The translations under genes were made by a program, and so were the position numbers. A DNA stretch of 62,819 nt, counting the filler, from Craspedostauros australis (Eukaryota), in assembly GCA_030167865.1 (NCBI GenBank). It is 11 parts of 11 records of this genome, joined end to end, with 100 filler letters (N's around TTAATTAATTAA, not from the genome) between each part and the next. Parts side by side here need not be neighbours in the genome. Positions count along the whole stretch, not along the records: positions 15,798 to 27,279 come from JALAGF010005769.1; 10 more parts are not named here. The stretch is one strand, 5' to 3'. Below are positions 4,729 to 62,819 of this stretch, one piece after another; the first letter of the stretch is position 1, and every line of letters begins with the position of its first letter. Below the pieces are notes generated by a model. The model was not told the origin of the DNA, did not search any database, and saw only the letters and a program-made list of their open reading frames with translations.

Positions 4729-4828
4729 NNNNNNNNNNNNNNNNNNNNNNNNNNNNNNNNNNNNNNNNNNNNTTAATTAATTAANNNNNNNNNNNNNNNN
4801 NNNNNNNNNNNNNNNNNNNNNNNNNNNN
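4729..4828. other. Artificial assembly spacer (first of ten)
   Basis: 44 N + TTAATTAATTAA + 44 N. The same 12-mer is at 4773, 8079, 10762, 12522, 14103, 15742, 27324, 50352, 53469 and 60382, and gives stops in all six frames. Confidence 0.97.
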
Positions 4829-5975: not shown

Positions 5976-8034
5976 ATGAGCAAGGATATCAAAAACAACA
6001 ACGGCGACGGCAATGACGGACCAAAGAAGGTCGACAACATGCTGCGCCTCCCTTCCAACGCCGAGCTCATCGAAGGTGCAGGCAAGGTCACGATGGATGA
6101 ACCGCAGATGTGGGGACGTGGCATCGTCAACGACATCAAGCGCACCGTCGGAACCCACTGGGTGGAGGTACGTCCTGATGCATACTGGTACCAGAGAGTA
6201 GTGTGCGATTACAAACACATGTTAGTCTCATATGTGCTCTCGTGTTGCACACAACACATCGCATGTATACAATGGCTCTGCTGTCACTCGCCCACCATGC
6301 ATTCGCACGCATTCGTACGCATCCTCACTCACCAGCTTCCACCACCTTCATCTTCGTCTTCATCATCTTATATCGCTCATCACCCAAATACCCCATTGCA
6401 CCGCAATCACCACCAACCGACCATCTACCACCCATGCATTAACCATGCATTCAACAGGAAATGACCAACTTCAACCAGAAGACCATCGCTGTCACCTTCC
6501 TCGTCTTCATCTCCGTCATCGCTCCCACTCTCACCTTCGGAGCTGTCTACGGAAAGGCAACCGAAAACAACATCGGCGCCATCGAGACCATCATCGCCAC
6601 AGCCTGGGTCGGTGTCGTCTACAGTCTCATCGGCGGAATGCCCACCTGCATCGTCGGATCCACCGGTCCGGTCCTCGCATTCTCCACCGTCATCTACAAC
6701 ATGTCAAAGTCCCTCGATGTTCCCTTCCTCACCTTCAACGCGTGGGTCAGCGTGTGGCTCTTCGCCTACACCCTCATCGCCGGCTTCTTCGACCTCACCC
6801 GATACGTGCGATTGGCCACCCGCTTCACNGACGAGATCTTCGCNCTCCTCATCGTCAGCATCTTCGTGATGGACGCCATCGGCGATCCATTCAGCGACGT
6901 CGGCATTCTCCACTACATGAACCCTGACCACGAATCGCACACAGAGCTCGAAGAGGAGGATCCAGACTACAGCTACATCTCCACTGGATTCCTGAGCGTG
7001 ATCCTCGGACTTGGAACCACCTCCTTGATCTTCTTCTTCCGTGGATTCCGTCATTCTCCATTCTTCTGCAACGACGGCATCCGCACGTCCATCCATGATT
7101 TCTCCGTCACGCTGTCGGTCGTCGTGTGGACTCTCGTCAGGGAGCTCATCTTCGAACACGTCGAAACCGAGTCGCTCAGCGTCCCAGATGAAATCGAACC
7201 GACTTTCGCTTGCTGCGATTCCTCCTGCAACACNTTCTTCCCAGATGACTGCGAAGGTCAGGCCGAGGCCGCTGGAACACGATCATGGTTGGTTGACTTT
7301 GGCGACCTCAACGGAAAGAACTGGATTCCCATCATGGCGGCCGCTCCTGCCATCCTTGCCTTCGTGCTTTGCTACCTCGACAACGGCATCACGTGGCATC
7401 TCATCAACCACAAGAGCCACAACTTGAAGCACGGAGAAGCGTACAACTACGATCTGTGTCTCAATGGATTCTTCAACTTCGTCAACGGCCTGCTGGGACT
7501 GCCATGGNTGGTGGCCACCACCGTTCCATGCATCATCCACCTGAATGCCCTGGCCGACAAGGACCGTGACGGNAACTTCCTCGAGGTACAGGAGACCCGC
7601 CTCACCATGTTCTTCTCCCACCTCATGGTCGGGCTGTCTCTCCTGGTCCTCAACGTCCTCAAGCTCCTCCCGCTGCCAGTCCTGTACGGAGTGTTCCTCT
7701 TCATGGGTCTCTCCAGCTTGCCCAACATCCAGTTCTGGAATCGCTTCCTCCTCTTCTTCCAGCAACCATCCAAGTACGCCAAGAACTGCTACACCGAGCA
7801 CATGGAGAAGAGGCGCATCCACATGTACACCATCCTTCAGATCGGCTTCTTCGCTTTGGTGTTCCTGGTGCAGAACTTGAAGGCGATCGCCATCATCTTC
7901 CCATTGATGACCTTGCTTTGCATCCCGGCGCGCCTTTACCTGCTCCCATACTTCTTCGAGGGATGGGAGCTCCTGTTGTTGGACGGCGAGGACGAGAGCA
8001 TCGAGCAATGGGCGGAAGCGAAGGAGCAGTCCGT
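5976..8034 (+). CDS. SLC4: SLC4-family bicarbonate transporter (diatom type), 2 exons, 3' end lost in gap
   Basis: Exon 1 is 5976-6167 (..GIVNDIKRTVGTHWVE), intron 6168-6457 is GTACGT..CAG in phase 0, exon 2 starts at 6458 (EMTNFNQKT..APTLTFG..). SLC4/BOR motifs: GSTGP, ATRFxDEIF, AYNYDL, ATTVPC, VQETR, VLYGVFLFMG, AIIFPLM; many TM segments. Confidence 0.95.
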
Positions 8035-8134
8035 NNNNNNNNNNNNNNNNNNNNNNNNNNNNNNNNNNNNNNNNNNNNTTAATTAATTAANNNNNNNNNN
8101 NNNNNNNNNNNNNNNNNNNNNNNNNNNNNNNNNN

Positions 8135-8624
8135 GCCTTCCAGACGGATTGGAGGCCTCATACTTCGTGACCAGACACTTTGGGGTGTGTTGTAAGTGGG
8201 CGCCGGGTTGGATTTCATGGTGATTGACATTTGCTATGCACATATGGGCAATCTACTGCACAGCATTGTGCGTAGGCCATCGCACGACCACCCACAACAC
8301 CACTCGAAATCTAGATTCTCAGATTTGACTACCTTCCAGATGGATTGGAGGCCTCATACTTCGTGACCAGGTACTTTGGGGTGTGTTGTAAGTTCCCGCT
8401 GGGTTGGATTCGATTGTGGTTGACATTTATAGGCACATATGGGCAATCTACTGTACACTATGGCACGTAGGTCACAGTACTGTCACCCACAGCACCACTC
8501 GATATCTAGATTCTCAGATTTGACTACCTTCCAGACGGATCTAAGACCTCATACTCCGTGACCAGATCCTTTGGGGTGTGTTGGAAGTGGGCGCCAGGTT
8601 GGTTTGGATTCTGGTCGACATTTT
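8135..8624. repeat. Tandem repeat (satellite-like), unit about 195-196 bp, about 2.5 diverged copies
   Basis: The unit start ccttccaga(c/t)ggat recurs near 8136, 8332 and 8527, with shared ctttggggtgtgttg and tctagattctcagatttgacta. The third unit is cut at 8624 by an LTR. Confidence 0.9.
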
Positions 8625-9489
8625 TGTTGGCAAGTTCCGCTCATGGTAACCTACGAACGTGGAAGATGGTGTTGGTTGATAGTCGTCTGTTTGCTATTTC
8701 ATTACGTTGGCACTCCGATACTCTCGGTGTCCGTTTGTTCTCTTGCCCGATGCTCTGGGCGCTTCAATCTGTTTCGTAGATTCGGTCTCTGACTATGAGT
8801 CGGCACGCGAAATGCTCTCTCGCTCTCTCTGTATTCTCTCTCTCTCTCTCTCTCAACATCGTGTGCTCATGCTACACGATACTTCCGTGTTCAATGCGTG
8901 CTCCGCATTCGACACTCTGTTCATTCAGTACTGGCTTCTACTCCATGAGTACTTACCATTTGAAGTTCACCTTCAGTATCCATGATGCTGATGCCCTCTT
9001 CAGTCATCGGATCTTCGCCTCTTGCTCTGACTTGGAGACAGCTGTCGACGTGGTGACATGTTGACATCCTGTCGACGTCAGTGGGTGTCCTTCTGCTCTC
9101 CAGATGTCACGTTCCATTGGTGATGCAGTANNNNNNNNNNNNNNNNNNNNNNNNNNNNNNNNNNNNNNNNNNNNNNNNNNGGTGATGCAGTAGTCTGTCA
9201 GATGATATCGTCATCTGAGGTTTAGTTGGGAAGTACCTCGAGATTCTCTTGGTACCATTGATGCGTGGACGGACGATCTTCTGATTCTCTCAGAAATCGT
9301 CATTTGCAAATTTCCTCCAGAAATCTTGCCCCTTTTCGTGTGTTCCATTTCCCCTGTAATTCTGACGAATNNNNNNNNNNNNNNNNNNNNNNNNNNNNNN
9401 NNNNNNNNNNNNNNNNNNNNNNNNNNNNNNNNNNNNNNNNNNNNNNNNNNNNNNNNNNNNNNNNNNNNNNNNNNNNNNNNNNNTCGACA
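8625..9489 (-). mobile_element. 3' LTR of a Ty1/copia element (contains gaps)
   Basis: On the minus strand the polypurine tract AGGAAGGG (9497-9490) is followed by TGTCGA at 9489, and the LTR ends GGAACTTGCCAACA at 8625. The last ~107 bp match 20858-20963. Confidence 0.8.
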
Positions 9490-10717: not shown

Positions 10718-10817
10718 NNNNNNNNNNNNNNNNNNNNNNNNNNNNNNNNNNNNNNNNNNNNTTAATTAATTAANNNNNNNNNNNNNNNNNNNNNNNNNNN
10801 NNNNNNNNNNNNNNNNN

Positions 10818-11740
10818 CAATGACAGTCTTTGTAGTGAATTGATTGTCCATGGCGACAACATGCTTGTCAGCAGGATTGAGTTTGGCAAGCAGCTCTGTG
10901 ATGGTGTTGTTGATCCTGGTGGTTTTGTCCAGGCGCCCCGATGGCAGCACATGGAACATGAACCCCGAGGCTGAGCAACAAAGGGAATAGAATTTGTAGC
11001 CTTCCTTGATTGGCTTCTGCTGCATGCNNNNNNNNNNNNNNNNNNNNNNNNNNNNNNNNNNNNNNNNNNNNNNNNNNNNNNNNNNNNNNNNNNNNNNNNN
11101 NNNNNNNNNNNNNNNNNNNNNNNNNNNNNNNNNNNNNNNNNNNNNNNNNNNNNNNNNNNNNNNNNNATCCATTTGTATTGCTGGATGATAGTTGGAGGAT
11201 GGTTTCCGTTGTGATAGTGTGGATGCTCTTGCCTCCCTGCTTGGGATCTGTGGGCTACCAGCAGCATGCTCCTCAGATTCTGGTGGCAACCCTTCTGACA
11301 CTCCTGATGCATTCAGTTCCCAAGCTGGAACAAAGTCCATGGGGCTCATGGCATCCTCAGCTTCTGGTGGTTCAGCTGCAGTCTCCACTGACAATTCAGA
11401 CACTTTGTCCAAGGTTGGCAATGCAGTGAAGTACATATGCTTCCATACCATTTCATATCTTGCTCTGGACATGTATGTCATGAGTAGATGAGTTGGAACA
11501 GAGATCCAGGCAGCTCTCCAGTAGTCAATTTTTGCTGGAACTCAGAAGAATCCCATTTAGTAGTCCATGGAAAAGAAGATGTACAGCTCAGGGGCAGTGA
11601 TGGCAGTTGCCATCGATTTGATGTTGCAAAGATGGCTGTTGGTGTGGAATTGGATCTTCTCCAGTAGTGAAACTGGAAAGAAGATTTCTAGGATAGTGTC
11701 AATGTTCATTTCCACATTGCGGATGGGCTGAACGCGCAGT
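10818..11740 (-). pseudogene. piggyBac-type DDD transposase pseudogene
   Basis: ITAPELYIFFSMDY*MGFF*VPAKIDYW (about 11600-11518), then MSRARYEMVWKHMYF, KPIKEGYKFYSLC and VVAMDNQFTT. In-frame stops and gaps; 5' boundary approximate. Confidence 0.85.
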
Positions 11741-12577
11741 TGCGTGCACTCACAGGTAGTGGCACATACTGAAGTGCTGGCTTTGTCTCATGTTGATGTT
11801 ATATGTGGTTCCCTGGATGATGTTGAGATGCAGATCCAGCCCCTTGGGGAGCAGANNNNNNNNNNNNNNNNNNNNNNNNNNNNNNNNNNNNNNNNNNNNN
11901 NNNNNTGTCATCTGCGCTTCTATCAATGGTTGATTGCAACAGAGATGGGCTGGCAAACTTGGTTGGGCTGCTTGCTGATGCTTGATCCATACAGAGCTGG
12001 ACTGGCACTGAATGAAGGATCTCTCCTGGCTGAGGCAAAGTGCCTTGCCATTGCTGATTGATCCATGTGGCAAATAGTTGGCTTGACCCATGTTGAGCAG
12101 TTGCGTTCAATGCTGCTGTTGCTCAACCTGGAGGAAAGCACTGTGCATTGTTGGCTCATGGAATTGGTGTGGTCAGATGGAGAAGTCTGCTGGGGTAGAT
12201 TTGATGAGCTGTTGTAGGAAGACCACACATCCCTGTTGACACTACCTCATGGATTGGTGGGCTGTTGGGTGGACCACTCTCCAAGAAATCACAGTAGGTG
12301 GGCATTGGTGGCAGATGTGCTGTTCAATCTTTGCTGTCATTGTTGATTGGAGACATGAGAGACTCATGGAAAAATACAACGTATGGGTGACCGATGTCAT
12401 ATGCAAGCATGCTCTCTGCTTGGAATTGTGGAGGATTGGAAGCAGGATGCAATTTGGGTGTTGCTGTTGCTTCCTTGNNNNNNNNNNNNNNNNNNNNNNN
12501 NNNNNNNNNNNNNNNNNNNNNTTAATTAATTAANNNNNNNNNNNNNNNNNNNNNNNNNNNNNNNNNNNNNNNNNNNN

Positions 12578-14058: not shown

Positions 14059-14158
14059 NNNNNNNNNNNNNNNNNNNNNNNNNNNNNNNNNNNNNNNNNN
14101 NNTTAATTAATTAANNNNNNNNNNNNNNNNNNNNNNNNNNNNNNNNNNNNNNNNNNNN

Positions 14159-15697: not shown

Positions 15698-15797
15698 NNN
15701 NNNNNNNNNNNNNNNNNNNNNNNNNNNNNNNNNNNNNNNNNTTAATTAATTAANNNNNNNNNNNNNNNNNNNNNNNNNNNNNNNNNNNNNNNNNNNN

Positions 15798-18700
15798 GTC
15801 GAGGTCTCCGTGTAGGAATGCTGTTACGACATCGACGAGTGCGCAGTCCATCTTCTTGATCAGCATGATCACCATCATGACTCGATATGTCACATCATGG
15901 ATGACGGGTGAGTAATGCTCTTGGAAGTCTACTCCTGCGACTTGTGAATAGCCACATGCAACGAGCCGCGCTCGATGTGTGCCGTCACGCTTCAGCTTGA
16001 AGACCCATTTGCATTTGCAGCATCTACGGCCGCGTGGAATGGTGTCTCGTTTGATCTTGCTGTACACCTTTCGTGTATCCATGGAGTCGAACTCCTTCTT
16101 GATGGCTGCTCGATATCCCTTTCGATGGATGGGATCTGGGTGATTGAAGGCTCCATCGAATGTCGTTGGTTCGATGTGCTTCTCTGGTTCCTTGTTCTCG
16201 TCTTGCATCGACAGTCCGATGTCGATCGTTGGTGACTCGGTGATGATTGCGTTCATCCCGTATAGTCCTGTTGTGCTATGATGAGTGATTTCGATCTCTT
16301 CATCTTCGTCTACGATTTCTTCGTCATCTGTAGTTTCGTTGTTGGACTCGTCAGTTATCTCGTCGCTGAGTTCATCACTGTCTTCATTGGATGATGATTT
16401 GCTCTCATAGCCTTCTTCCTTTCGACCTCGTTCGTTGAAGTCTGCGAGCTCACGCAGAGCTCTAGGAATGCTCTTCCCTGTAGTTGACTTGGGATTAGTT
16501 TCTCCCTTCCTGACTTGTGCTTCATGACATCGGATCCTCTCCTTTCTAGCCATGTCACGCTTGTTTGGTTTGGTTGGTGGAGGTCTCGATGGTGTGTCAT
16601 GTGTAGACCTCGCTGGTGTGTTCGGAGGAGTGACGCCTGTGTCATCGTCGGCTTCGTCGCCGGATGGTTGGATTTCGTCATCCTCCTGATTGGATTCGCT
16701 CCAATCTTCGTCGTCGTTATGGATTAGTTGAGTTACTGTTCCATTGTCCTCGTCATCCTCATCATCACTGTCTGATAGGATGAGATACCTGTTGCTGTCA
16801 GCGAAAGATACTCTCTTCGCTTCTGATGTTTGACGCATTGCCGTCTTTGGCGTTACTCCCTTCCGTCCAATGGTTGTGAAGCTGTCTGCGTCTGTTGTTC
16901 CTACTTTGCTGGATATGTTCGGTGCTGGTGCCCAGCCACGGAACTGTCCATATGATTGGTTGAGCCATTTGATGTCGCGAGAACAGACCAGTGACTTTGT
17001 TGATGGCCTGTACATGTTGTAGACTCCTGATGCATGTTGGTGTGCATATCCAATGAACACCATCTCTTCTCCTCTGTTCTTGAGTTTGGCGGTGATCCCG
17101 CCGTAGGTAGTCTTCACAACACCTACCTCTCCAAATGTGCGGAGTGCATCCGCGTATGGTGGATCACTGCCGAAGAATTTGCGATGTGGTGACTCCTTCT
17201 GATTCTTCGCTACGGTGATGTTGGCGATGGCGGTGGCAGTGCTCGCAGCTGCTGCCCACAGGCCATGCCTATACTCTTCGTCGAGTTGTGCTCCGTTGAG
17301 CATGGAGCGGATCTTGGTGTAGAGGTACACGAACTTGCGTTCCACTCTGCCGTTCTGTTGCGGCGTGTTCGATGCCGTGAACTCGAATTTCACGTTGAGT
17401 CCTGCATTGATGAGAGTATATTGCGTGGATTTGTTCTCTCCGCTGTTGTCTCCTTGGAAGATGATTTGTTGATCACCAGTCTGTGACTTGATCGTCTGGA
17501 CGAATCGTTTGATGTATCCTGGTTGGTCACTCTTGTTCTTGAGAAAGAAACTCCAGCAGTGATCCGTGCAGTCGTCCACAATCAGGGTCCAGTAGCGTTT
17601 ATCTCCGAAGCTTATGTGTTTAGTGTAACTAATGTCAATGAAGAGACGTTCGCCGTGGCGAGTTGCTCTTGGGATTGTCGCCTTCGAGATGTTCTTCACT
17701 CTTGCGTTCGCGACCGCGCAGTCGCGACATACCGGCATCTCGCCAATGATCTTCCATCCGTATTGGGCGGCTGTCCGCTTCATGGTTTCGAGTAGCGCGT
17801 GGCCAAGCATTCGATGCAAGTTCATCGCGCTGATCTCCTTGGATAGATTCTTGATGATGGCTGTGCAAGCCTTGTCGTCGTCCGTTGGCATGATGGGGTG
17901 CATCTGCACTCCCGTGATGAATCCGTTGGATGTGGGGAAGACTCGATCGAACACGATCTTCGTTCCGGATCCGTTGATGATGTCCATCAGAATGCCNTTG
18001 TTACCAAGCTGGTAACCGTTGTACAGAGCCTTGTTCGTGGAGAAAAGGTTCACCGCCATTTTCGGTGTGTACTTCACATCATTGAGCCGGATGATGTAGC
18101 CAGTGTTGTCTCGCTGCTTGACCTTCAAGCGAATGGATCCCATCTTGGGAGAGTCCAGCTTCGTGCTGTCTCCCACTTGGATAAAGGATTTGATGTGCCG
18201 CATGTTGAAGAGGGCGGCGTCCGAATTGACGATGTGACACGAAGCTCCGCTGTCGGCAAGCCAGGTGTCCTTGTTGACCTTGTCCTTGTGCTTGGTGCTC
18301 AGTTCGTGGAGCTGCTCCACGGCTGCTGCAGCTATTTCGTCGTTGAAGTTGCCGTCATCTTCGTCTTCGTGAACTCCGTCTTCATTGTATGGATGGTGGT
18401 GATCCTCATCATCCATATCGTTGGGTAGTTGCGCGTAGTCCGATGGAATCGTACTGTTCCGATGTGATCCTGTGACTGGATCATAAGGGTTGACGCGTGG
18501 TCGTTCGCGTAAGAGTACGCGCATGCATCCTCCAAGGATATAGTGCAGATCCGTCTCTGGGATCGTCTCTGTATCAGCCGCTTCCAGTATGCGATTGATG
18601 ACGACCGAGTTGGCGAGAATCTCTTCGATTGATCTGAAGTTCTCGGATAGGATGGATCCCATCATGTTCACCCATATTGGTCTGAGCACTCCTTGTGCAA

Positions 18701-19509
18701 CTCCTGGGAACAGTTTCACTCCTGCTTCCATTACGGCATCGAAGATGAGTTGCTTCTGGATTATCAATGCTGTTGCCGTTGCGTATGGGATGGTATCATG
18801 ACGATGGAGGTAGTTTGAGCTGTTGGGATTCTCAATCGGTGGGAAGTCGATATTCCCTGGGTAGACGACACGCTCATTTGGGTTGAAGCTGTCGTCTGGA
18901 TGGTCTTCGGTTTCGTCGCTGTCATCTTCATCGAAGATGCCCGATCTGTTGTTCCCCGCCGCTGGAGGAGGTGGTGCTGCGCCGCCGTTCGTTTCGTCTT
19001 GGCCTCTATCAATCTCGTTGGTCTCATCGTCGGCCTCTTCACTCATGGCCTCTTCGATGTCGCTATCGATGGCCTCGTTGCCCATCTCGGCTCTGTCGCC
19101 GTATGGACCGATCAGGTTGTTTGCGTTGAAGCAGCATTTGTAGCTCACTTCGCGTCTTGGATCCACCTCGTGGATGATTGGCTCCTCGCTGAGCCACTCC
19201 GGGACGATCTCATCGTCCTGCACTTCGTTGTCACTCCCGACGTACTCGAAGTTATCAAAGAAGGAGTCTTCAATGTAGTCGTCGGACACTAACATGCAGA
19301 GCGGCATGTCCTTTGCCAAGAGTACCATCTCGTGCCCGCTCTTGTCGTGTCCTTCCGTTGCTGTGTTGGCCTGTTCGTCGGCCTTCTTCTTCTCATTGAA
19401 CTTCTTCTTTCGGCACTCCGCCTCACGATGCCCAAAGATGCCACAGTAGTTGCACTTCCCATTGAAACCGCTTCCCTTGTTTCGGTTGTTGTTGCGTTTT
19501 CCGTTCATC

Positions 19510-19542
<33 letters not shown>

Positions 19543-20774
19543 TTCTCGTTGTTCGATTTCTTGCGTTCTGGGCAATCGGCGGATCTGTGACCATACACGC
19601 CACAGTTGTGACAAGTACCCTTGAAGTTACCGGTGCTCGTGAAGCCGGTGTCGTTGCCCTTCATGTTACTGTCTTGGAAGTCGTCGACGTATGCTTTGCC
19701 TCCTCTGTGCGTGGCGTATGCAGTGCGGAGTACTCCTCTGATCGCGTTGATGGTAATCAGTTCCGGATTGAACGTGAGTTGATGTTGGAAGTTCACGATG
19801 TGGGTTCTGTACTCGCTGCTCACCGTGCTGAGGATTTGCATGATCATTTCCTCGTCCGTGATCTTGTACTTGACATCGTGGAGACGCGATCGTAGACCCT
19901 CAAGTCGCGTGATGTAGATGTCGGGGTCCAAGTCTCTCTTCATCTTTTCGTTGTTGAACTGACGCTTGAGTTTGATCTTCGTCGCTGCGTCGGATGGACG
20001 GAACTTCTCCGCGAGAACGTTTCACGCTCCGTGTGCGTCTCCTTCAGGGTAGTCGTCGGAGATGCATTGGTTGATGTACTGGATGGCTTGCTTACCTTTT
20101 CCTTTCTCTGCATCCATCATGAGGATCAGATCGCTGAAGCAGTCGCATCCCAGCTTGTAGATCTCCTCCATCGCTTCCTTGTCTCCATCGGCGGCTGCCG
20201 CGATCTCGCTCACTGTTGGCACCTTGGTCTTGCCCAACATCACGTCTCTCGTCTTCTGTGCACGAGCGTATGCTTTCGCTTGGGACTCCCATGCGCTATA
20301 GTCTTCCTGTTCACCGCTGAACATCGGCGCCTTGATGCGTCGCTTGTTCATGTTGGCTGATGTCGCCATGTTGGTTCGTTGTTTCGTTGTTGGTGCGCTC
20401 GCGCCCTTGATTTCCGTCGGTTTCTGTGTTGTCGATTCTTCGATTTTCGCTTGTTGTTTCGCGAGGATTGATTTGCTCACAAATTCTCCTCCTGGTGGTG
20501 TCTCACTTTTCCCACCCTGTTTGGCTGTGCGAATGCTCTCCGTCACACCAGTCTCCTCTTGTTTGGTCGCCTTGAGAATCCTCTTCTCCTCGCGATGTAG
20601 TCTCGCAGACCGTTCTTCTTCGGTCTCGTCGATTGCGCTTGCGTCTGCGCCTGATAGGACAGTAGCCACGGCTGCTTCCTTCTCTTGTTGTGGTGGAGTC
20701 TCACTCGCACCTTCTTCTCTCTTGATAGCTGGATTGGACAGAGGGATGTCTTTCAATTCCTCTTCCTCGCTCAT
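15798..20774 (-). pseudogene. Copia gag-pol polyprotein with one premature TGA in gag
   Basis: ORFs 20022..20774 and 15750..19943 are in the same frame, separated by GDAHGA*NVLAEKFRP. Two CCHC knuckles, protease WLADSGAS, integrase LHRMLGH..CRDC and FIDIS/GDNSGE/NGRVER, RT KWVFKLK..RARLVACGYSQ..DVVTAFLHG. Confidence 0.93.
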
Positions 20775-20843
20775 TCAGCCTGCTGCTCTTGAATGATGTT
20801 CGTCTTCCTCGCACGATCCGATCCACGGGCTCGCCTTGATCTA

Positions 20844-20857
20844 TCGTTTATAAACGA
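20844..20857 (-). promoter_or_regulatory. 14-bp perfect palindrome TCGTTTATAAACGA at the primer-binding-site position
   Basis: Directly follows the LTR end ..GGAACTTGCCAAC on the minus strand; no TGG-type tRNA PBS is present. Confidence 0.75.
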
Positions 20858-20963
20858 GTTGGCAAGTTCCGCTCACGGTAACCTACGATCGTGGACGATG
20901 GTGGTTGTTGATAGTCGTTTGTTTGCTATTTCATTGCATTGGCACTCTGATCCTCTTGGTGTC

Positions 20964-21769
20964 TGTCAGGAATCGAGGGTACAACTATGTCGTGATATCC
21001 TAGATTGCCGCACCTCCCATAATACCAAAAATAGACTAGTCGATCTACCAAAGTTGGACACACTCCCAAGTCGATTGTGAGCCATCCTTCTCTGTGTGTC
21101 AAGAGTATGACGGACAACGGACAGACGAATGACATGATGTGTTCGTGATGACTAACGGACAAATATGGCGAACAATGGATGCAAAAGAGAGACTGGAATA
21201 CTGGAATGTTCTAAACATGACAGTTGACCGGTGGAACAAACATCTATGCGAAAGCGCTACCAGAATCTTGTCCCTCAGAACTCAGAACACGATCGTGTGA
21301 ATGACGGAGAACCGCGAAGGAGAACAAAGCGCGGATCGGAACATCATCGAAGGATTGGGCTGATCGTGCTAGAACATGATGTTCTGACCCAAGTGTGATC
21401 ATTGGTGAACATGTGAGCAAAGTGAGTGAACAACGCAAAAGAGTGCACTGAACGGGTGATTGGTGTCGGATTGGAAGAGAGTGAAACTTGACATCAGCAT
21501 GCATGTACTGCAGGAGTGTAGAAGGGAATCACCATGGAGGAACATGATGAAATACGCCTGAGATGCATGATGAGATGTGCATGATGAACAAGCTTTGCAA
21601 TGATGAATACAGGAGCAACTAAAGGGTGCTACTGCTATTATCATGGGCAATGGATTTGAAGATGCAAGAAATGAAGAGGATGTTCTCACAGTTCCAACAA
21701 TGCAACAACAGGAATAGGTAATCAGATACTACTACTAACTAGAGACTGGGTTACCCCGGATTTCCAACA
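20964..21769 (+). mobile_element. LTR of a second family (TG..CA, 806 bp), opposite in orientation to the adjacent copia
   Basis: Begins TGTCAGG exactly where homology with the 8625-9489 LTR stops and ends GGATTTCCAACA. The last ~85 bp are nearly identical to 60788-60868. No 5-bp TSD (gtgtc vs atggg). Confidence 0.65.
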
Positions 21770-24367
21770 ATGGGCAGCCACTGAAGATATGAATATGGCA
21801 GTGGTTATATTCATAGTAACTGGGGCAACCACGCGGCGACAAGAGGAGGGAGCTGAGAGGATCGCACGTTCGACCAACATCGAAGAAAGGAAAGGAATCA
21901 GCTGGACATTGCAGCCACCGGATACCTATAGGTTTCAAATACAGATTGAAGATTGTTCCTTGGCAGTTATATTGCACTAAAGAGTTGGAAGAGGCAACTT
22001 CCTACTCGTTATCACTCTCCAAACAACAGCAAGCAAAAGTATAGTGCCTGGGATAGAAAGCACACAAGAGCACGCGCTTTTGTGCGGAGCAACAAACAAC
22101 ACGAAGAATCGGGTGGTGCCATGAGAACCCAAAACAACACGAAGAAACACGCGATGTGGGGAGGGTGTTGTTTGCCATTTAGTCGGACGAGTCTATCACG
22201 ATTAAATGTCGCGACAAATCGTCGCGTTATTTTTCGTTTGCGTCAGGACGCAACAGTTCACGCACACCGCTAGTAAAATTCTGCGTCCTGACGCAAGGGG
22301 GGTCCTCTATCGTGGGGAAAAATCACCATGGATATGTAAACGCCATGCAATAATACAGTGTCAAGATGAGTACAGGAACACGCACACGAGCTAAGTCCGG
22401 AGAGTTTGACTACGGTTGATGCTGTTAGTTAGGATTCGGGCGTAGACGGCGCGAATCGGTGGAGGATGTCTCGTGAATCTGCCGGCTTTGGGATAGCCGT
22501 GTGATGCAGCTCAAGAGAGGTGTACTGGTTGAAGAGTTGTAACTGTAACAATGAGTAGTAGAGCGCTTTGTAGCTAATCCTTGTCTGTTATTATGAGTTA
22601 GCTTATTGGTGTTAGTAGGGTGAAGAAACGATGCCACACAACTTGGCGAGACCCTGCGCTGATGTACTTGATTCAGTACAACAGAGTAGACAATCATTAC
22701 AGTACTTTGCTCTCCGTACGTGTAGATACACTGCAGTGTAGGTCATGACACTCAGTGGTGACGGTCATGAAGCAGTGGCTGTGGCTGAAGCTGACCCTCG
22801 GATTCCATTGCTTGGGTTGAAGCAAGTTGGATACGCATGTTGAGATCACGGTGGTAGTGTGGTGGTCATCAGCATGGGAGGGAATCGAGGTATGTTGTAG
22901 TAAGGAGGATCTGAAGAGCATATAGTTCCCAGGTGGGTTGTGAGTCAGGTCGGTCAGGTTTGAGTCATGATGGATTCGTGAATGGAGGAGAGGAAGGAGG
23001 AGAAAAGATTTGGTGGTCAATCAAGTCGGAAGATTTCGCGCCAAAACAAGAATTTCTCCCATCGGAGGTGGATACCGTGTTCGGTAATAGTCTGTCCCTC
23101 ATTGAATCTCAACTCTGTTTTTGGCCTGTTTTTGTTCGGGACTTACGTATAAAATGTACTACATTCTACAGACCATTCTTCGTGATCCAAAAATCGCCAA
23201 AAATCGCCAATGGCGTTGGCTACAGGCGGCTCTTGAAGGCACTAGTGTTATCGTTGGTGCATCAACTGCGATCTGCAGGTCGTATTCCTTCCATCTGCCT
23301 TCCATCTGCCTTCCATCTGCCTTCCATAGTATCAACTCGTTGTTGGCAAAGGGCAGTCCTGGCATTGCCCTTTTCGCTTAACTGAACGGTTATGTGAAAT
23401 GGTTGCAATTTTTTTGCCGCTGTTTTGGCAGAAATTTCGAAGGCAATTGCCGGGCGGCTGCCTCCCACGTAAGCGTGCCACAATACCACCCTCGAAACGG
23501 CTGGCCCGACTCCGAGGTGCAATCAAGCAACAGGAACGGTGGGAGACACTAACACGAAGCAACCACGAGACCACAAACGCAATCGTTTGGACGACGACCC
23601 ACAATGGAGCAATGCATTCTCAACCACATGACAACGATACGATCGTACGCTGGAACGCTTTCAGACGAGTTTTCGTTGACGGCGCAGAGCCAAATCAGTT
23701 GTTCTCACAAAACTGCAAGGATCGCAAGCAAAACGGCCAACCAAGCCTTGCGCACAGACTGATCAGAAGCATCCTGCCCATCAGCTTTCCCAAACAACAA
23801 CAACAACAACAACTGAAAGGTGAGTCTGCCACACCCCAACGCAAACGCCACGACAGCATCGAGTGTCAGCGTCACGAGGCGGTGCAGGATGCCCCAAAGG
23901 CCACAGCAACCACTAAGAGCGTCGCTGCTGTCGCTCACGTCATGAGTTGTGCGAAGACTTGCCATTGGATGCCGGAAGCCCACATCGCGATGCATATCGT
24001 CCCCATGCCTTGCATCCTCTTGCATGACGATTTCATACTGGTCTCACAGTATGGAAGACCAGCACCTTGCTTGTGCGCACCGACAGTGGGCTCCTCGTGG
24101 TGGTGATCCACACAGCACATTTCGTTTGCAGACTGTCGGTTGCGTGAGGTCGACAACGATTTTCAGCAATCGTGACTCACTCCTTGTGACAGCATCCGTG
24201 ACTTGGAGGATCCAAACAAGTCAGAATCTGGCCATTCCACAAGAATCTCGAGTGCGCGAAATATCGCAACTCCCAACTGACCCAGCGCTTCCGATCCACT
24301 TCCACCGTCCCCAACTGACGCGCTTCGCGTGCTTCTCGACTTCAGCAGGCACCCAGCAGCAGTCACA

Positions 24368-27279
24368 ATGTTCAAGATCAAGGCAGCCATCCTCGGCGCG
24401 CTCCTCCTCGCCCATGTGGGCTCGATCGAGGCCGTCCTGCGTGGCAACAGAGCCTTGGGTCAGACCGAAGAGCTTCATGTCATGATGCAAGCCACCCGTA
24501 CCCTCAAGGCTGGCGATGGCAACGGCAAGAACCAGAAAGAGGACAACAAGAAGAACAAGGACACGGAGTCGCCAACTAGCAACCCAACCACCACCCCTGG
24601 CATGCCAACGGCGGCACCGACCAGCGCCCCAACATCGGCGCCGACCTCGGCACCGACCAGCGCACCAACGGCGGCTCCAACATCGGCTCCTACCAGCGCT
24701 CCGACTGCAGCTCCAACATCGGCTCCAACCAGCGCTCCGACATCGGCTCCGACATCAGCACCGACCAGCGCCCCAACTTCGGCCCCGACATCAGCTCCAA
24801 CATCGGCACCGACATCAGCACCGACCAGCGCCCCAACTTCGGCTCCAACTTCTGCCCCAACTACACCAACAGCTGCCCCAACCTCGGCACCGACCAGCGC
24901 ACCAACATCGGCTCCAACTTCTGTACCGACATCCGCACCAACTTCTGCACCGACCGCAGTCCCAACTTCGGCACCTACTTCTGCACCGACCGCAGTCCCA
25001 ACTTCGGGACCAACATCTGCACCTACTTCGGCCCCAACATCCGCCCCGACAGCCGCCCCGACATCCGCGCCAACTTCAGCGCCAACTGCATCGCCAACTT
25101 CGGCCCCAACCATGTTCGATGCCTCCATCATCACCATCTGCAACCCCGATGACAACGGAGGCATGACTGTGGGAGATATCAAGACGTTGATTTGCAACAG
25201 GGACAAAGCGTCATGCCGCCAGGCCATTCTTGCCGTGCGCGGTCTCAACGACCTCCAGACGTTCTTCGCATGCGCCGGAGACGGCATGAGCGAAGGAGCG
25301 TCCCGCGCTCTGTTCAACAGATTCGCTTCCAATCCAGACCTCGCCCAGCAGCTCGAGATGGCCTTCTCCACCGGAACCCAATTCGTTACCGCTTTGGAAG
25401 GAACCCCGATGACAACAACATGTAACGGGATCGTCGCAACCTGCTGCGCCAACGACGGTGACTGCTCCTCCACATCCGCCGACACCTACATGACCGTGGC
25501 ACTCAACGGATGCGTCGGAATGAATGCGTGCGCTGGAATGGGTCCAAACGCGATCGTCCTTGAGTCTTCTTGCAACGGACCCGACGCATGTAACGGTGTG
25601 AACGCAAATGATGCCATGCTGGTGGCATCTGGAGTCACTTTCATTGGCGAAGTGGCCTGCACCACCGCCAACTCTTGTGAACGCCTTGGAGCCTTCTCCT
25701 ATGGCGACGTTATTGTCCAGAATGGAGGCTGCGTTGGAGCCAACGCGTGTACCCTTGCCGGACTGCACCAACAGCAGGTGACGGCGGGGCGCCGTGTGTC
25801 CAACATCAACGTCGGCCAGAACGCCTGCAACAACGTCAACGCGTGCCGCGACGCCCACTCCTCCAGCGGTGGAGGAGCCAAGGTCGGCGGAAGTCTCAGC
25901 ATCGAGGACGGTGCCTGCGTTGGCAACAACGCCTGTCAAGACTTGGCCAACAGCGACCTCATGGTCACTGCTGTTGTTGTCGAAGAGGACGAGTGCTCTG
26001 GAACTGACACCTGCAAGGGATGCGTGCTTGACAACTGTCCCAACCCCGATGGCCAGGTGTACGTCATCAGCAACGCAGCCCTTGCGTGCCCCAAGGACGC
26101 CATGGGCGACCCAACTGGTGCTGTTGTCGTCATCTTCTGCGTCAACCTGGACGACCGCCCAACTGAGTGCCCTACCTTCGCCCCAACCCCGCTCATGAGC
26201 GACATCCCGTCCGTCCTTCCGTCCGAGCTCCCGTCCCAAGGTCCAACCCGAACACCGACCGAAAGTCCATCCGACCTGCCATCCGTGCTCCCGTCCGAGG
26301 GTCCGTCCAACTTCCCAAGCGTCCTTCCATCCGACGGACCCACCATCGAACCAACCGCTGCCCCGACCATCAACAAGACTCCGCTGCAGACACTCTGCCT
26401 GGGAACTCCAGGCGATGTCGGCTCCACGATTACGTTAGGACCACAGGTCCTCTGCGACGACGACATGGGCATCTGCACCAACTTCGTGAATGCCATCGAA
26501 TCGCTCCCCGACAACAAGGACAGACTCGTCAAGAGCATCCTCGGATGTGCCCCCTATGGAGCCATGGCCACCGTCGAAGTCGCCCAGGCCCGCTTCGATA
26601 CCATCAAGAACGACGCAAGTGCCATCACTGCCATCCTTGGCGCCCTTGAGGGCAGCGGTATCTTCCTGACTGGGACTGCTGCAGAGGTCGAAAATGAGTG
26701 CTACAATTCTGGCTTCTCGTGCTGCAGTGATGGCGCCCAGTGTACGACAGCAGATGCCAATGATATCATCACCATCACTCCAGACTCTTGTTCCGGCACA
26801 ACCATGGCGAATCCGTCCTGCGACGATCTTGGCGGCGACATCATCATCCTCGGCAGCTGCCTCAATGACAACTCCTGCTCTGCCCTTGGCAGCTTCGGAG
26901 TGGCGCCCAACGCCCAAGCCGTCATCGGTTCCACCATCATCGGACCAGCCGCCTGCACCAACGCCAGAAGCTGCCAAAACCTGGGATTCAACATCTACGG
27001 AAACATCCGCATCGAGCGTGCTGCGTGCAATGGCGTGGATAGCTGTAACGGCATGGGTGTCCGTGTGGCACAATCACCAATGGTCATCACACCGGTTCTT
27101 GCCGATATCCTCGTGCAGGAGGAGGGATGCCAAGGGCAGCGCTCATGCCAGAACGTCCACCGCGGAACTGGAAAGACCACTGGAAGCCTTGACATTGGAC
27201 AGAACGCCTGCATGTCCGTCGACAGTTGCAACGGCGCCGCAAGCAGCAACGATGCAGTTGATGACCTCGTCATCGAGGA
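24368..27279 (+). CDS. Secreted/cell-surface protein: signal peptide, mucin-like (SAPT)n stalk, two Cys-rich repeat modules; C-terminus lost in gap
   Basis: MFKIKAAILGALLLAHVGSIEA signal-like N-terminus, then LRG/RAL/RTL motifs, a long T(S/A)AP array, repeated [ASG]C-x-[GN]-x-x-[AS]C units and a PS-rich linker. One open frame with host-like codon usage. Confidence 0.88.
24607..25111 (+). repeat. 12-bp coding tandem repeat encoding (T-S/A-A-P)n
   Basis: About 40 tetrapeptide units with synonymous variation between them. Confidence 0.92.
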
Positions 27280-27699
27280 NNNNNNNNNNNNNNNNNNNNN
27301 NNNNNNNNNNNNNNNNNNNNNNNTTAATTAATTAANNNNNNNNNNNNNNNNNNNNNNNNNNNNNNNNNNNNNNNNNNNNGAGAATAACACGAGATATCGT
27401 GTAAATCAACATGCCATCTTGGGCAATGTTTTAGGAAAGACTGCGAGATACAACACGAGGTAACCGAGCAGCACGTTAGCAACCGTGCAATAGGCACCAT
27501 CTTTAGAATGATGAGATCATGTTCTCATAATCCAAACTCAATCATCAATTGACACACTAACTTAGCAACAACGAATATCACCAAACATTCTGGCTTCCCT
27601 TGACGGCTTGATCACCCTGGCGGAGAAGTAAGTGCAGTGTTTGGTGCCCTGTCCTGTGTGTAATTGCTGATTATCACCAGGAGAGGCATCCCATGGAAG

Positions 27700-42612: not shown

Positions 42613-45600
42613 TCATGTACCGATCCGTCCTCCACGTCGTCGCTTTCTTGCCCTTCCGTCACCTGAAGCCGCAGCAAACCGTCGCTTGCTCCTGCTCCGC
42701 CCTCGCCGTTGCCGTCTCGCGTCGTTCGCAAGTCCTTGGCTCTCTCCGCGTGCCTCGCTTTCCACTGCACTCCTCCGCTCGCTGGCTGCTCTGGCCGCAC
42801 TCCGCGCTGCCTGCACATGCCGCACCCATCGGCGCTGGTCGTCCACGGGCCACCTTGCGAGTTCGTTCCGTGTAACATTCGCTAGCAGCCCACGATCCGC
42901 TGCCATAATGCCTGCATCCCCCATCTCCCACTGCTGATTCACCATCCTGCACACTGCTACCATCGCAGCTGCTTCGCGCTTGCGCCCTTCCCGGTCATGC
43001 AGCACCCTGTTTCGCGCCTCCCAGGCTTTCCATCGCACGTCCCACAGTCCTGCGACTGCCGCTCCCATCCAGTTTGACGGCTTCATGGGCCGCTCCTCGA
43101 TCTCCATTCGAGCTGACTGAACCTGTCGCCACCTCTTGGACCACCGCCCTCTTGTCATCATCCCCCACCCGATCGCCTGCTGATCGTTAACGGCATCTTG
43201 GACCACTCGCTGTGCTCTTGGCTCCGGCTCCTCCTTATTGCACCAGCTCCTGATTTGGCGCACCATTTCGCTCACCATGCCCACATCTCCTCCGGCCTGC
43301 AGCATGTCATCCTTCCATTTGGAAAGCGCAGCTTCCCTCACTGCCATTGCTGCGGGGTGTCGGCACTGCAATATATGCTCCGTCGTCTCTTCTTCGTCGC
43401 GACAAATCGGGCACTCGCTGCTCGCCCAAAACCCCCACTTCGCCATATTACGCCCCACTGGCCCGAACCCCGCGGCATGCTTCACCACCCATCGTTTTCG
43501 TGCACTGCCTAATCGCCCCATAGCTGCCTGAACCGACTCCACGTCGATGCGCTCGATCACCTCCGCCGACATCTTCTTGGTTTTGCGCTGCCACGCCCAC
43601 GCCTTTGCACTCTGGACATGGCGCCGAAGTTCAGCCTTCACACCTCGACACACTTTACATGACCGAAGCCACACCGACCACTCATCATCTCTCCACTCGC
43701 CGTCTGTGCTACTCTTGTGGCTTTTCTGCTCCACTCCAGCCAGGCGATCCACGTCATCATTCCAGTAAGTAAACTCGTCTCTCGCGACGCCACGATCGCG
43801 CTCCAGCTGGTGACCATACACATGTCGATACTCAAGTTTTGCTGGTATCGTCCTTGTCACCTGTCGTATCGCCCTCAAGAGGTCGAAGTGCTGGACTCCN
43901 ATGTGTACATCGCGATCGTATTCCACGGCATGGATGCCGGCCATGCGGTTGTCGCAGGCGACCACAACTGTCGCCGCAGAAGCACCGCTCTCTGTGCCGG
44001 ATTCCCGAAGCATTCTGTCAGCCACCACCAGGGCTTGGTATATGCCACCTAGCTCTGCTCGGTACGCGCTCTGTATTGCTTGTCTTCCTTGCACCGGCCC
44101 CGCCATCTGTAGACATCCATCACGTTGCCCTCGCACGTTCAACGAGAAAGCCGCCGTGCTCCTGCCGTCCTTAAACGACCCATCGGTGCTGATAACAGCT
44201 CTACCTTCTCGTGCTGCCTGGACCCACTTCTCTGCGGCTTCCCCGAATTCTGACCTCACGGCCCCGCTCGGTTGTCTCCACCATCTGCCCACTCCCACCA
44301 CGTATACCTGTTCATCCTGTTGTCGGAGCCATACTTGGCGTCCCTGCGTTGCCGCCAGCTCTGTGGGTTGCCCTTGACGCCGGAATCCCTGTAGTCCTGG
44401 GTCGTCGCCAGCTCGTGCTGCCCACTTCTGCCAGCGGCCCCCGCTCTCTCTGGTCCACACTGCGCTTGCGCTCACCTCCCACAGAGCTTCCGGTGGCGCC
44501 ACCATTCGGCCGTCTGTCGAGAGCTGTCCTCGAACTCTGCGTATCGCTCGCCCCCACAACCTCCAGTCTTGGTCCGGTATTGGTCCTTGCCGCGGCCAAG
44601 CTATGCTAGCTCGTCCTCGCCATCGGCCGCGCGCCGTCTCTGGAGGGAGCTCTGCTTCCGCGCACGCCACGTCTCCGGTCGTCATCACCTGCATTTTTAC
44701 CCTGCATCGATTCAGACGCTCCAGTTGCGCTCTTGTGTACCCTGCTCCGCGCAGTGCCGGCATCAGCCATTCCTCCTTCTCCCACGCTCGAATGGTAGTT
44801 GGCGTCCTCTCCCGCAAGTCGATGCCGTACTCTTGGACCTCTCTCCACACTGTTTTGATCCAACAGTCCGTCGCCAGAAACGACCATGCCTTGTAGCTCG
44901 TATTGAAGAGAGCATCGCCGATGCCGATCTCCGTTTTCATCGCTTCGATCGTCCCTCGAATAAGTTTGCCTGTAACCGTGCTCCTTTCGCCATGCTCCAG
45001 CACCATGCATACATGCTCCACGACCTGCGTCGTGTGCAACTCATGCACATTGGCCCCGAGCAACGCACTTGGCGCGTGGATCATAGCCCTCGGGAAGCCT
45101 TTGTTGTAGCCGAGCTTGGACATCGTCGCCGCCCACACGGGCTTCATTGTCTGCCTCGCTTCAGCTTCGCTAAGTTGCGCCACCGGCAGAACGTACTCCA
45201 GCTTCTTCAGCAGTATGCTCCGAATCGCCGCGTCTGCGTCCTGTTTCCTTACTCGCTTCGTTCTGACCTTCTCTGCCCAATTCTTGGCTTTGTCTTGTAT
45301 AGCTTCGACGATAGCTGCGCCGTTTCCATCTGGTGCCAGTCGCACTCCAAGAGTCTCGAATGCTTGGTGCCGAGCACTTTTTGGCATCTTCTGTCGGTCT
45401 CTATTGCTGCCTGCCATCCAGATCTCGTACGGCGTCTCCTCCTCATTCGCGTACCGCCACGTGCCATCCTCTCGCCACTTGAAGTCGATCGGCCACCACA
45501 TGCTCTTCTCTACCACCAATGCTCCTCCCGTCGCCCTCACTAGCGCTTCCCACATATCCACGCTACTCTGCATTCTCTTTACGGCTTCTTTGATACCCTC

Positions 45601-50275: not shown

Positions 50276-50407
50276 ATGATCCTGGTCGCTATAGATGAAC
50301 TCGTTGTNNNNNNNNNNNNNNNNNNNNNNNNNNNNNNNNNNNNNNNNNNNNTTAATTAATTAANNNNNNNNNNNNNNNNNNNNNNNNNNNNNNNNNNNNN
50401 NNNNNNN

Positions 50408-60337: not shown

Positions 60338-60437
60338 NNNNNNNNNNNNNNNNNNNNNNNNNNNNNNNNNNNNNNNNNNNNTTAATTAATTAANNNNNNN
60401 NNNNNNNNNNNNNNNNNNNNNNNNNNNNNNNNNNNNN

Positions 60438-60868
60438 GTGACATGATGGTCGTGTGAGAGGAATTCTGAGGAATCGAGGACGATGTGGGATCGATCGATA
60501 CGAAACCTGTGAGGAGATACCGAGATGACTACGAGATGTACTGCATGAGCGTAGAGCGAAATGAAACTACTGAAATACATGATGAGATGCATGCAGAGAG
60601 CAGGAGATGGAATATCTGAGATGAATGATGAGATGCATCGATACTGCAAGATGAGATGTACATGAAGTGCATGATGCATGACATGATGAAGCAGGAGACA
60701 GCACCACATGAGCAAGGGCAAGACTGTGTGCTACTGTGGATTATGTATGCTATGGCAAATGGAATTGAAAGAGATGGAGATGTTGTACTCACAGTTCCAA
60801 CAATGCAACAACAGGAATAGGTAATCAGATACTACTACTAGAGACTGGGTTACCCCGGATTTCCAACA
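60438..60868 (+). mobile_element. Partial LTR (probably a 5' LTR) related to 20964-21769
   Basis: Ends gagactgggttaccccggatttccaaca; ~85-bp near identity with 21684-21769; ATGAG/ATGC-rich body. Confidence 0.75.
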
Positions 60869-60881: not shown

Positions 60882-62819
60882 TATGATTGAAATCCAACGT
60901 TTCCACCACCACCAACACTAGCCCACATCATCATCATCGACATGACCATCAACCACACCCAGGACCATCGCGAATAATGGTCCCCTGTGTCAAGAGAGAG
61001 GAGAACAAGAGGTTCTGGAGCATGACGCTCCTTGTCAATGGACGCCAAGAACGGCATGGCAACCCCCACATGAACGACGATGTCGAGACGATGATGATCG
61101 ANNNNNNNNNNNNNNNNAGTCCACCAGCAGAGTGGAGACCGCAGCTGAAGCAACTACAAGCACAACAAGTATTGCTGGAAGCAAGGAGGCGCTCGGAACA
61201 CGCGCATTGGAAGAACTGTCCATGGTCATAGGACCATGAAGTCAAGGAAGGCACACAGAGACCTTCGAGGCTGTGTTGGAGTACGAGAGCAAGCTGTACG
61301 CAAGAAGAGATTCGGACGCAGCAGACCACGCTCTCGGATGCATCGTATTCAGCAGACTGCGCTATGAAGGCGAGATAGCTGAAGGAGCTCAACGAGATGC
61401 AATCGAGGAAGCAATGAGAGCTTCCAACCTACCCGTGCAAGGCACGGAGCGAGCTCAGATCCACTCGGTCGATATGAAAGCCAAGATGGATAAGGAGCAA
61501 CACAGATCGCCGATGCTGAACGTCTGCGCGCATGGCATACGCGGCGCGATCCAGAATGATCAAGATCTACGCAGAGATGGGCGTGGCCCATAGTCGTCAT
61601 CATATCAAGAGTGACGTGAGGAGCAGCAATGGAAGCATCAAGACGATCACATGGCGCCGATTGCCATTGTGTGATACGGAGCTCGATTGTTGGCTGCGAT
61701 TCCTACTGCGATATGATCGAGGAGGTAAGAATGCAATCTACCAGCCATGAATTGGCGACAACAACGAAAATAGCAACACAAGAAGTGTATGCTGCGGTGA
61801 GCAGGGAAAGCGCTGTAACAAAGCTGGACAGGAGGTCCCACCGCGCTTCGATCCCCAAACTCAAGACGGAAGACGAGGAACAGGAGGTATCCTCGCCATC
61901 AATGAAGATGATGACTCAAGACATCCGCGGAGCTGTGAGCCTCATCTACGACCGCCACCGTATCAAAAACGGTTATAAATGCGCACGAGGCAACAGCGGT
62001 GAGAGCGAGATTGCGTTGACTACGGATCGATCGGTTCAGGATCAACTGTCCTAACCACGATGCCCACGATAGTGAGATGAAGGTAGCCGGGTTGGCCAAG
62101 GTCGCGACAGACGGGATGGACGGGATGGATGACATCGCTCTCATCGCAAACGACGAGCCGATGTCCATGCCCATCAACGAAAATGTGGTCGGCATCAAAA
62201 TTGTGACCAACACGAAATTCGTGGCCATCACCGAAATCGCGAACAACAACAAAATGTGACCATCGGAAACTACGCGATGATGCGCGACGGCAAAGCAATC
62301 AAACAGGATGTCAGCGTCAACGAAATGACAATGACCGGAGTGGACGCCGACGAGGAGATTGACAGCACTATCCATGAGCTGGTACAATATCTCACCCTAA
62401 TTTGGAGCTACTTCGACAGAAAGACTGAAGAGGCGTCACGTCAGGGCATGAACAACGCATGGTATCCGTTGCGCTCGAAGCGCGGCCCATTGAATGCATG
62501 GTGCATGGACTGCCAAGAAACTGCAGTCCTCACCCAGATTCCGGACGGCCCAAGAGGAGCAATCCCACGGACCAAAGCGGAAAGGGAGGAGCGCAGAGGA
62601 CTGCTCATGAACGCAGGTCCGATCTGCCTCTTATGTCGATACTCGTTGAGCAACATGATGTCTGCCAACGATGTGCGCTTCGAGGTCTCGAGGATCTGCT
62701 ACGATGCGATCGACGACTTCGAAAGTCGACTATGCAGATGCGCATACCCACACGCGTTGCACTACAGAATGCATGAGATTGGCGTGCGGAGTGCACTCGA
62801 CGTGGCTCGCAACGTGCAC
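60882..62819 (+). mobile_element. Putative degenerate internal region of the LTR element
   Basis: Follows LTR + palindrome; A/G-rich with only short broken ORFs. At most weak echoes of gag (AYAARS, GCDSYCD). Confidence 0.35.

Follow-up and report, generated by a model that had tools for sequence, protein, structure and literature searches.

The window analysed here (the whole stretch of 62,819 nt from Craspedostauros australis, a raphid pennate diatom) is a chain of at least 11 separate contigs joined by linkers of the form N44-TTAATTAATTAA-N44, located at 4729-4828, 8035-8134, 10718-10817, 12478-12577, 14059-14158, 15698-15797, 27280-27379, 50308-50407, 53425-53524 and 60338-60437. Because the linkers join separate contigs, neighbourhood across a linker is meaningless. 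The subject of this report is a pair of perfect palindromes at the ends of two long terminal repeats (LTRs), site 1 on the contig 15798-27279 and site 2 on the contig 60438-62819; both contigs end inside an element or LTR. The features concerned are the following.

15798..20774, minus strand: Copia gag-PR-IN-RT frame of element 1, with Pfam domains in Copia order; the RT is cut by the contig end
[quoted passage not shown]
20858..20963, minus strand: 3' block (probably R-U5) of the 5' LTR of element 1, with the end GGTTACCGTGAGCGGAACTTGCCAAC at 20858-20883
60438..60868, plus strand: LTR of a second family, with the end GGTTACCCCGGATTTCCAACA; the LTR is cut by the contig start
60868..60881, plus strand: site 2, perfect 14-nt palindrome ACGTTTCGAAACGT, beginning on the last base of the LTR
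8626..8731, minus strand: LTR end of a family-1 relative, CCAACA followed by AAAATGTCGACC, no palindrome; a 3' or solo LTR
21663..21769, plus strand: LTR end of a family-2 relative, CCAACA followed by ATGGGCAGCC, no palindrome; a 3' or solo LTR

The window also contains a bicarbonate transporter gene (6461-8086), which is 98% identical to a Craspedostauros protein and 78% identical to one of Phaeodactylum, and a LINE-like element (42613-50275, minus strand) with an endonuclease/exonuclease/phosphatase domain and RVT_1; a frame of 618 aa upstream of the LINE-like frame matched no Pfam family. A fragment at 10762-11541 (minus strand) matches a DDE_Tnp_1_7 (piggyBac-type) transposase. Three tandem repeats of 195 nt (8136-8623) adjoin the LTR end at 8626, and a repeat with a period of 12 nt (24557-25147) encodes a PT-rich frame (24329-27331).

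Element 1 is a member of the Ty1/copia group (Pseudoviridae) by its domain order gag - protease - integrase - reverse transcriptase. Its gag ATG lies at 20774, 69 nt after the palindrome, and the Pfam matches along the frame are zf-CCHC (109-126), Pol_BBD (561-644), rve (761-859), SH3_retrovirus (928-994) and RVT_2 (1302-1383); a protease barrel comes after the zinc knuckle. The frame scored 1146 bits against a profile (A1) built from the metagenome protein relatives of element 1. The gag carries a divergent N-terminal extension and an in-frame stop at 20024-20022 (minus strand, motif ...DAHGA*NVLAEKF), and this copy of the element is probably dead. The Copia setting of site 1 is borne out by the gag/pol order of element 1 and finds no counterpart at site 2, where the following 1.95 kb contain no Copia gag or pol detectable with Pfam, tblastx or profile A1. 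The internal region at site 2 yielded no Pfam family, no match to profile A1 and no usable Atlas match, and a single weak tblastx match, to the LINE-like frame 42613-48450; the element at site 2 may be non-autonomous. The DNA after site 2 is read as internal rather than flanking because the palindrome core and the leader architecture are common to both sites. A reading of site 2 as the 3' LTR of the Copia frame at 53525-60337 was rejected, as that frame lies on a different contig.

At site 1 (minus strand, 20883-20844) the LTR end GGTTACCGTGAGCGGAACTTGCCAAC runs into TCGTTTATAAACGA, and at site 2 (plus strand, 60848-60881) the LTR end GGTTACCCCGGATTTCCAAC runs into ACGTTTCGAAACGT. These two otherwise dissimilar LTRs on separate contigs both end GGTTACC..CGGA..CCAAC and continue into a perfect 14-mer, as the preliminary description had it and as was read again on both strands. 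The two 14-mers differ at positions 1/14 (T..A vs A..T) and 7/8 (AT vs CG), and all four differing letters are compensatory, the outer and the central pair each changing together, so that this part of the earlier account is also upheld. The core pattern CGTTTNNAAACG occurs at two places in the 62.8-kb window, which are sites 1 and 2 (0.01 expected), and the LTR-end motif has four matches in the window (0.00 expected). Two of these, the LTR ends at 8626-8651 (minus strand) and 21749-21769 (plus strand), stop at CCAACA and are followed by unrelated DNA, from which it follows that the LTR ends on the first base of the palindrome; the earlier placement of both 14-mers on the last LTR base is therefore borne out by four LTR ends.

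Regarding the relationships among these LTRs, BLAST showed that the two of family 1 (8626-8731 and 20858-20963) have only their last 106 nt in common (89.6% identity) and are unrelated further upstream, and that the two of family 2 (21663-21769 and 60766-60868) have only their last 103-107 nt in common (90.7%). It had been claimed that the 5' LTR of element 1 ends in CT rather than CA. Since the LTR at 8626 belongs to a different contig and has no more than its last 106 nt in common with that of element 1, the contrast is one between subfamilies and not one between the 5' and 3' LTRs of a single element, and the claim does not hold in that form. The shared 3' blocks would agree with a conserved R-U5 attached to varying U3 regions, for which strand transfer between unlike co-packaged RNAs is a possible route; under the R-U5 reading, the transcription start would be some 105 nt short of the LTR end. 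At 20858-21769 the LTR of family 1 (minus strand) and one of family 2 (plus strand) stand head to head within about 900 nt, which suggests nested or adjacent insertions.

The closest protein relatives of element 1 show at most 41% identity and lie on metagenome contigs of 4-6 kb. Searching with profile A1 yielded 16 Copia contigs inside bacterial MAG assemblies, and five of those assemblies, when searched, gave about 150 matches, 114 of them in one assembly. Repeats of eukaryotic origin contaminate these bacterial bins (loci L169-L268, G001-G005). The sequence upstream of gag was compared on 23 distinct contigs, two of which had less than 130 nt upstream. A perfect palindrome of at least 12 nt directly after AAC or AACA was found in 7 of the 23 upstream regions, as follows.

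L171, L176 and L225: palindrome ACGATAATTATCGT
L224: 16-mer palindrome CACGATAATTATCGTG
L177: palindrome ACGTTTTAAAACGT
L229: palindrome CGTTTTTAAAAACG, after AACA
L208: palindrome TACTTTAAAGTA, after AACA

The two sites of the window and these seven together give nine perfect palindromes of 12-16 nt, mostly 14, in elements that stem from at least four sources. The palindrome includes the final base of the LTR in seven of the nine; in L229 and L208 the dyad begins one base later and the outer pair is lost. On contigs L177, L224 and L176, pol ends before the palindrome and the next gag starts after it; in L177 both reading frames are stop-free and gag begins 23 nt after the palindrome. As the gag ATG follows only 69 nt (site 1) or 23 nt (L177) downstream, there is no room for a second primer site.

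The preliminary description had called for palindromy to be examined after every 5' LTR in diatom genomes. Against the seven perfect cases among the 23 contigs stands L216, a close relative of L224 in which the palindrome is disrupted about 100 nt upstream of gag while the gag frame is open over 416 aa; with a broken dyad and an open frame it is a counter-example. L216 retains a GGCTT/AAGCC closing stem despite its broken palindrome. In L230 the palindrome has decayed to 5 of 7 pairs, and its gag also has stops. The contigs of the other 14 relatives, on which the LTR ends are unplaced, show no comparable palindrome upstream of gag, and by their gag N-termini these relatives belong to other groups. 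Where other perfect palindromes of at least 12 nt occur in the upstream regions, they are AT-rich and have no AAC(A) directly before them. A GTAC-N6-GTAC motif lies about 100-120 nt upstream of gag, with 6 of 7 pairs in L220 and L228 and, by eye, about 5 of 7 in L215, and AAATTCATCAATTT, identical in L221 and L222, has 6 of 7 pairs. Such near-palindromes of other Copia groups may be diverged forms of the same device, or something else; the intact relative L185 has no near-palindrome upstream of gag. A search for LTR pairs in the relatives' contigs found none, the only repeats being partial ones in L178, which is a different, plant-like Copia.

In an alignment of the nine sites, 92.1% of the cells were paired (a figure that is partly circular, the seven added sites having been found by their perfect palindromy) and both sides change in six of the seven pairs. 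The covariation score was 0.643, compared with 0.179 in shuffled alignments, and was reached by none of 500 shuffles; controls with the register slid gave 26-49% paired. Several observations are independent of the palindrome search, namely the shared position, the AAC flank, the fixity of the 14-mer in L171, L176 and L225 (unchanged while LTR and leader are about 77% alike), and two scans. The first scan, for AACACG-N8-CGT, was blind to the inner eight letters, and N8 was palindromic in 5/5 matches on Copia contigs and in 0/114 others. The second used a loose LTR-end motif on the metagenome and gave 119 chance loci, of which none had more than 5 of 7 pairs after the motif. With each site taken in its own register, the two central pairs are AT, CG or TA and are self-complementary in all nine. 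Most differences between distinct palindromes are transversions; the central CG vs TA is the only one that CpG deamination on the two strands could account for. As far as sequences can show, the comparison supports selection on dyad symmetry, as had been proposed from the two window sites, by adding seven further elements with a perfect palindrome at the same junction and covariation in six of seven pairs. Outside the Copia contigs, a protein query and alignment A1 found no relative among viral contigs, and the pattern CCAACNCGTTTNNAAACG hit 49 loci there, none in an LTR context; a scan of G001 for GCTTTTAAC gave counts near the control, with three look-alikes inside an unrelated reading frame.

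These results also bear on the explanation that the palindrome is a feature of the DNA (a target of some dimeric protein, or a by-product of mutation) or a product of chance, and has no role in reverse transcription. All pairs are of the Watson-Crick type, as a DNA site would need, and perfect 14-mers are not very rare: six perfect palindromes of at least 14 nt occur in the whole window, against a shuffle mean of 2.5. What counts, rather than the rarity of perfect 14-mers, is placement, a perfect palindrome on one given base having a chance of about 1 in 10,000. We consider a DNA-level or chance origin very improbable in view of the exact placement at the LTR boundary in nine elements from at least four sources, the 0/119 outcome at chance LTR-end motifs, and the variation of the sequence under constant symmetry, which a sequence-specific protein site would not allow.

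By definition, the LTR end marks the start of minus-strand synthesis. It follows that the 3' end of the primer has to pair with the opening bases of the palindrome; apart from the palindrome itself, no sequence is known to do so. A conventional primer site complementary to a tRNA 3' end was rejected, since TGG is absent at or beside the LTR end in all nine sites; the sequence after the LTR end begins with CG in eight sites and with TA in L208. A T-arm reading of ACGTTTCGAAACGT was rejected by inspection, as the base before TTC would need to be G to pair with C61 of the usual tRNA numbering. There are no tRNA genes in the window. We estimate a probability of about one half that a Copia-type lineage has given up tRNA and has the palindrome as its minus-strand primer site, and the palindromic elements probably start copying without one.

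Against this stands the possibility that the palindrome is a dimerisation or packaging signal only and that the primer is a host RNA, be it half a tRNA or some other small RNA, pairing with part of it. Palindromes at hairpin tips are classical dimer signals, and Copia and Ty5 use internal pieces of tRNA, according to PMC3592414. However, the bases next to the LTR differ among families and relatives and change in step with the far half of the palindrome, which a fixed host RNA does not explain; moreover, none of the nine sites starts with TGG, and the gap of 23 nt between LTR and gag in L177 fits no other primer site. A host-RNA primer is accordingly judged rather improbable.

Self-priming of the Tf1 type, in which the transcript of the element folds back so that its own 5' end meets the site, is a mechanism proven for Tf1 itself. 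The search for such a partner covered the whole upstream LTR stretch, up to 440 nt, and in the six sites tested the longest exact complement measured 5-8 nt, a length reached by 48-300 of 300 shuffles; the 8-nt match of L171 is absent from the compared upstream sequence of L176. This leaves the Tf1 type with next to no probability for the present elements. The sequences, with neither a TGG nor a Tf1-type site, thus favor the earlier suggestion of tRNA-independent priming by hairpin or duplex, or of RNA dimerisation.

Folding predictions place the palindrome at the tip of a stem formed by U5 and the leader, with a short unpaired stretch after the palindrome. This closing stem is predicted in all nine sites from the last 7-13 nt of U5 and the leader beginning 3-9 nt past the palindrome, and its sequence varies between families while the pairing is retained. 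In six of the nine sites no more than 30 of 1000 shuffles give an equally good fold; in the other three the stem is not significant alone (L176, 244; L208, 147; L177, 129 of 1000 shuffles), the stem of L177 being UAUUUCAA/UUGAAGUA. Folds of the whole region are only marginally above shuffles (z -0.2 to -1.9). The predicted elements in the window are as follows.

20861..20872, minus strand: predicted U5 arm of the site-1 closing stem
20825..20835, minus strand: predicted leader arm of the site-1 closing stem (duplex -14.8 kcal/mol; 30 of 1000 shuffles as good)
60857..60863, plus strand: predicted U5 arm of the site-2 closing stem, GGATTTC (GGAUUUC)
60889..60895, plus strand: predicted leader arm of the site-2 closing stem, GAAATCC (GAAAUCC) (-9.2 kcal/mol; 9 of 1000 shuffles as good)
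60896..60903, plus strand: AACGTTTC, complement of the 3' half of the site-2 palindrome (60875-60882)

Alone, the palindrome is predicted to form a 5-bp hairpin of -1.8 to -2.3 kcal/mol, and two copies a homodimer of -15.2 to -19.3 kcal/mol (site 1, -16.2 for the homodimer vs -2.0 for the hairpin; site 2, -19.3 vs -1.8). The hairpin is the basis of another explanation, fold-back priming within one RNA, in which the palindrome would use its own 5-bp hairpin on the U5-leader stem, or a downstream copy as in the fungal Conserved Hairpin Site (CHS). Cleavage in the bulge of 3-9 nt after position 14 would create a 3'-OH base-paired with the final base of the LTR, and the molecule would be copied from its own end. 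In the predicted hairpin the last base does pair with the last LTR base and unpaired bases come next, site 2 has an 8-nt downstream complement, and fold-back is the reading of Donnart et al. for the fungal elements (PMC5445492). The mini-hairpin, however, is worth only about -2 kcal/mol, and complementarity of the two central pairs is kept in 9/9 sites although the hairpin cannot use it. The best match of the palindrome to a partner within the following 60 nt was at chance level in seven of the nine sites (site 2, 23 of 500 shuffles; site 1, 49 of 500); AACGTTTC is the only downstream partner among the nine comparable to the CHSeq2 of the fungal site, and a weak one (reached by 23 of 500 shuffles; site-2 fold with it -8.1 kcal/mol, z -1.88). 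Fold-back within one RNA is therefore unlikely in our estimate.

Because the central pairs stay complementary and yet cannot pair within a hairpin, the partner would be the same palindrome on a second RNA, and the symmetry of the two central pairs, as read from the sequences, favors pairing between two genomic RNAs. From there we infer a priming mechanism, in which every step beyond the pairing of the site with itself is conditional. The hairpins of two co-packaged genomic RNAs would meet through their self-complementary tetraloops, and the kissing hairpins would convert to a duplex of 12-16 bp, like the dimer initiation site of HIV-1. Cleavage of one RNA at the 3' edge of its palindrome, possibly by the element's own RNase H as in Tf1, would then provide a 3'-OH opposite the last LTR base of the other RNA, which the reverse transcriptase would extend by copying the partner's U5 and R. 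Since a cut 3' of the palindrome severs the genomic RNA, the model needs one intact partner. In HIV-1, the primer is removed one base short of the junction, and the presence of the last LTR base inside the dyad would fit a removal of this kind. Dimer linkage and priming would thus be one signal. That the primer site is at the same time the dimer linkage, each of the paired genomic RNAs being cuttable to prime the other, is a tentative proposal that we hold as a possibility.

The question of where DNA synthesis starts in LTR retroelements has two proven answers, a host tRNA or the fold-back of Tf1. If priming between paired genomic RNAs is true, reverse transcription would start only in the dimer and require no host RNA, the same principle would underlie the unexplained CHS of the fungal GalEa elements, and an old and widespread third way of priming would stand beside the tRNA and Tf1 types. 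A practical consequence is that pipelines demanding a tRNA primer site, such as the LTRdigest filters used for a diatom genome (PMC7466962), will discard such elements. A full-text literature search, whose coverage does not extend to Repbase Reports, returned no paper on palindromic primer sites in diatom Copia elements; the primer site is not mentioned in Maumus 2009 (PMC2806351), and PMC3601003 and PMC7466962 contain nothing on palindromic primer sites.

Among the known systems, Tf1, Tf2 and Tj1 are self-primed, an RNA duplex being cleaved by RNase H (Levin 1995, 1996; Lin and Levin 1997, 1998; via PMC4600332). Tf1 can be likened to the diatom sites in that, as described there, priming is independent of tRNA, uses the element's own RNA as primer and needs a U5 stem-loop; its site, however, is non-palindromic and has the transcript's first 11 nt as its partner, whereas here the site pairs with itself. 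Tf1 is a Ty3/gypsy element, whereas element 1 is a Copia. The dimer initiation site (DIS) hairpin of HIV-1 has a palindromic apex, and both this hairpin and the PAL motifs of Ty1 (PMC3592414) resemble what is predicted for the present sites in placing a self-complementary sequence at the tip of a 5'-leader hairpin in a dimeric genome. For the nine sites the apex position of the palindrome is a prediction of the energy model. HIV-1 and Ty1 have a separate tRNA primer site, whereas in the present elements the primer site is taken up by the palindrome and a separate one is absent. A site that does not start with TGG is shared with Drosophila copia, which is primed by a half-tRNA, as Ty5 also is. 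In this half-tRNA priming, which is named in PMC3592414, the Drosophila copia site matches an inner part of the initiator tRNA and is not self-complementary, in contrast to the compensating changes seen here.

The closest known published case is the CHS of the fungal GalEa Copia elements (Donnart 2017, BMC Genomics 18:410, PMC5445492), a group that the paper puts next to the diatom CoDi clades. The CHS is described there as a 10-nt palindrome that includes the final A of the LTR and is accompanied by CHSeq2, an inverse-complementary 9-mer that has a conserved A/A mismatch and lies downstream at a distance of a few to 41 bp; a fitting model was not found by the authors. The CHS agrees with the diatom sites in that no tRNA primer site follows the 5' LTR, in being palindromic with the final LTR base counted (here in seven of nine sites), and in variants that differ by symmetric changes, and its authors also raise a possible larger hairpin across the LTR junction, with a conserved stretch reaching into the LTR end. 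The differences are a length of 10 nt compared with 12-16 nt (mostly 14) here, the letters ([A/T]CG-N8-CG[T/A] here, ACTGATCAGT or ACTAATTAGT in GalEa), and the variation, which comprises several distinct sequences with transversions here, whereas the two GalEa variants are separated by G-to-A and C-to-T transitions alone. CHSeq2, the second defining part of the CHS, has no counterpart in seven of the nine sites; a predicted U5-leader stem encloses the palindrome instead. The hosts here are a diatom and the eukaryotes whose repeats contaminate the bacterial bins, whereas those of GalEa are fungi. To the fungal case the diatom elements add a longer dyad, several unrelated sequences, compensatory transversions and central symmetry, and these four properties together point to pairing between two RNAs.
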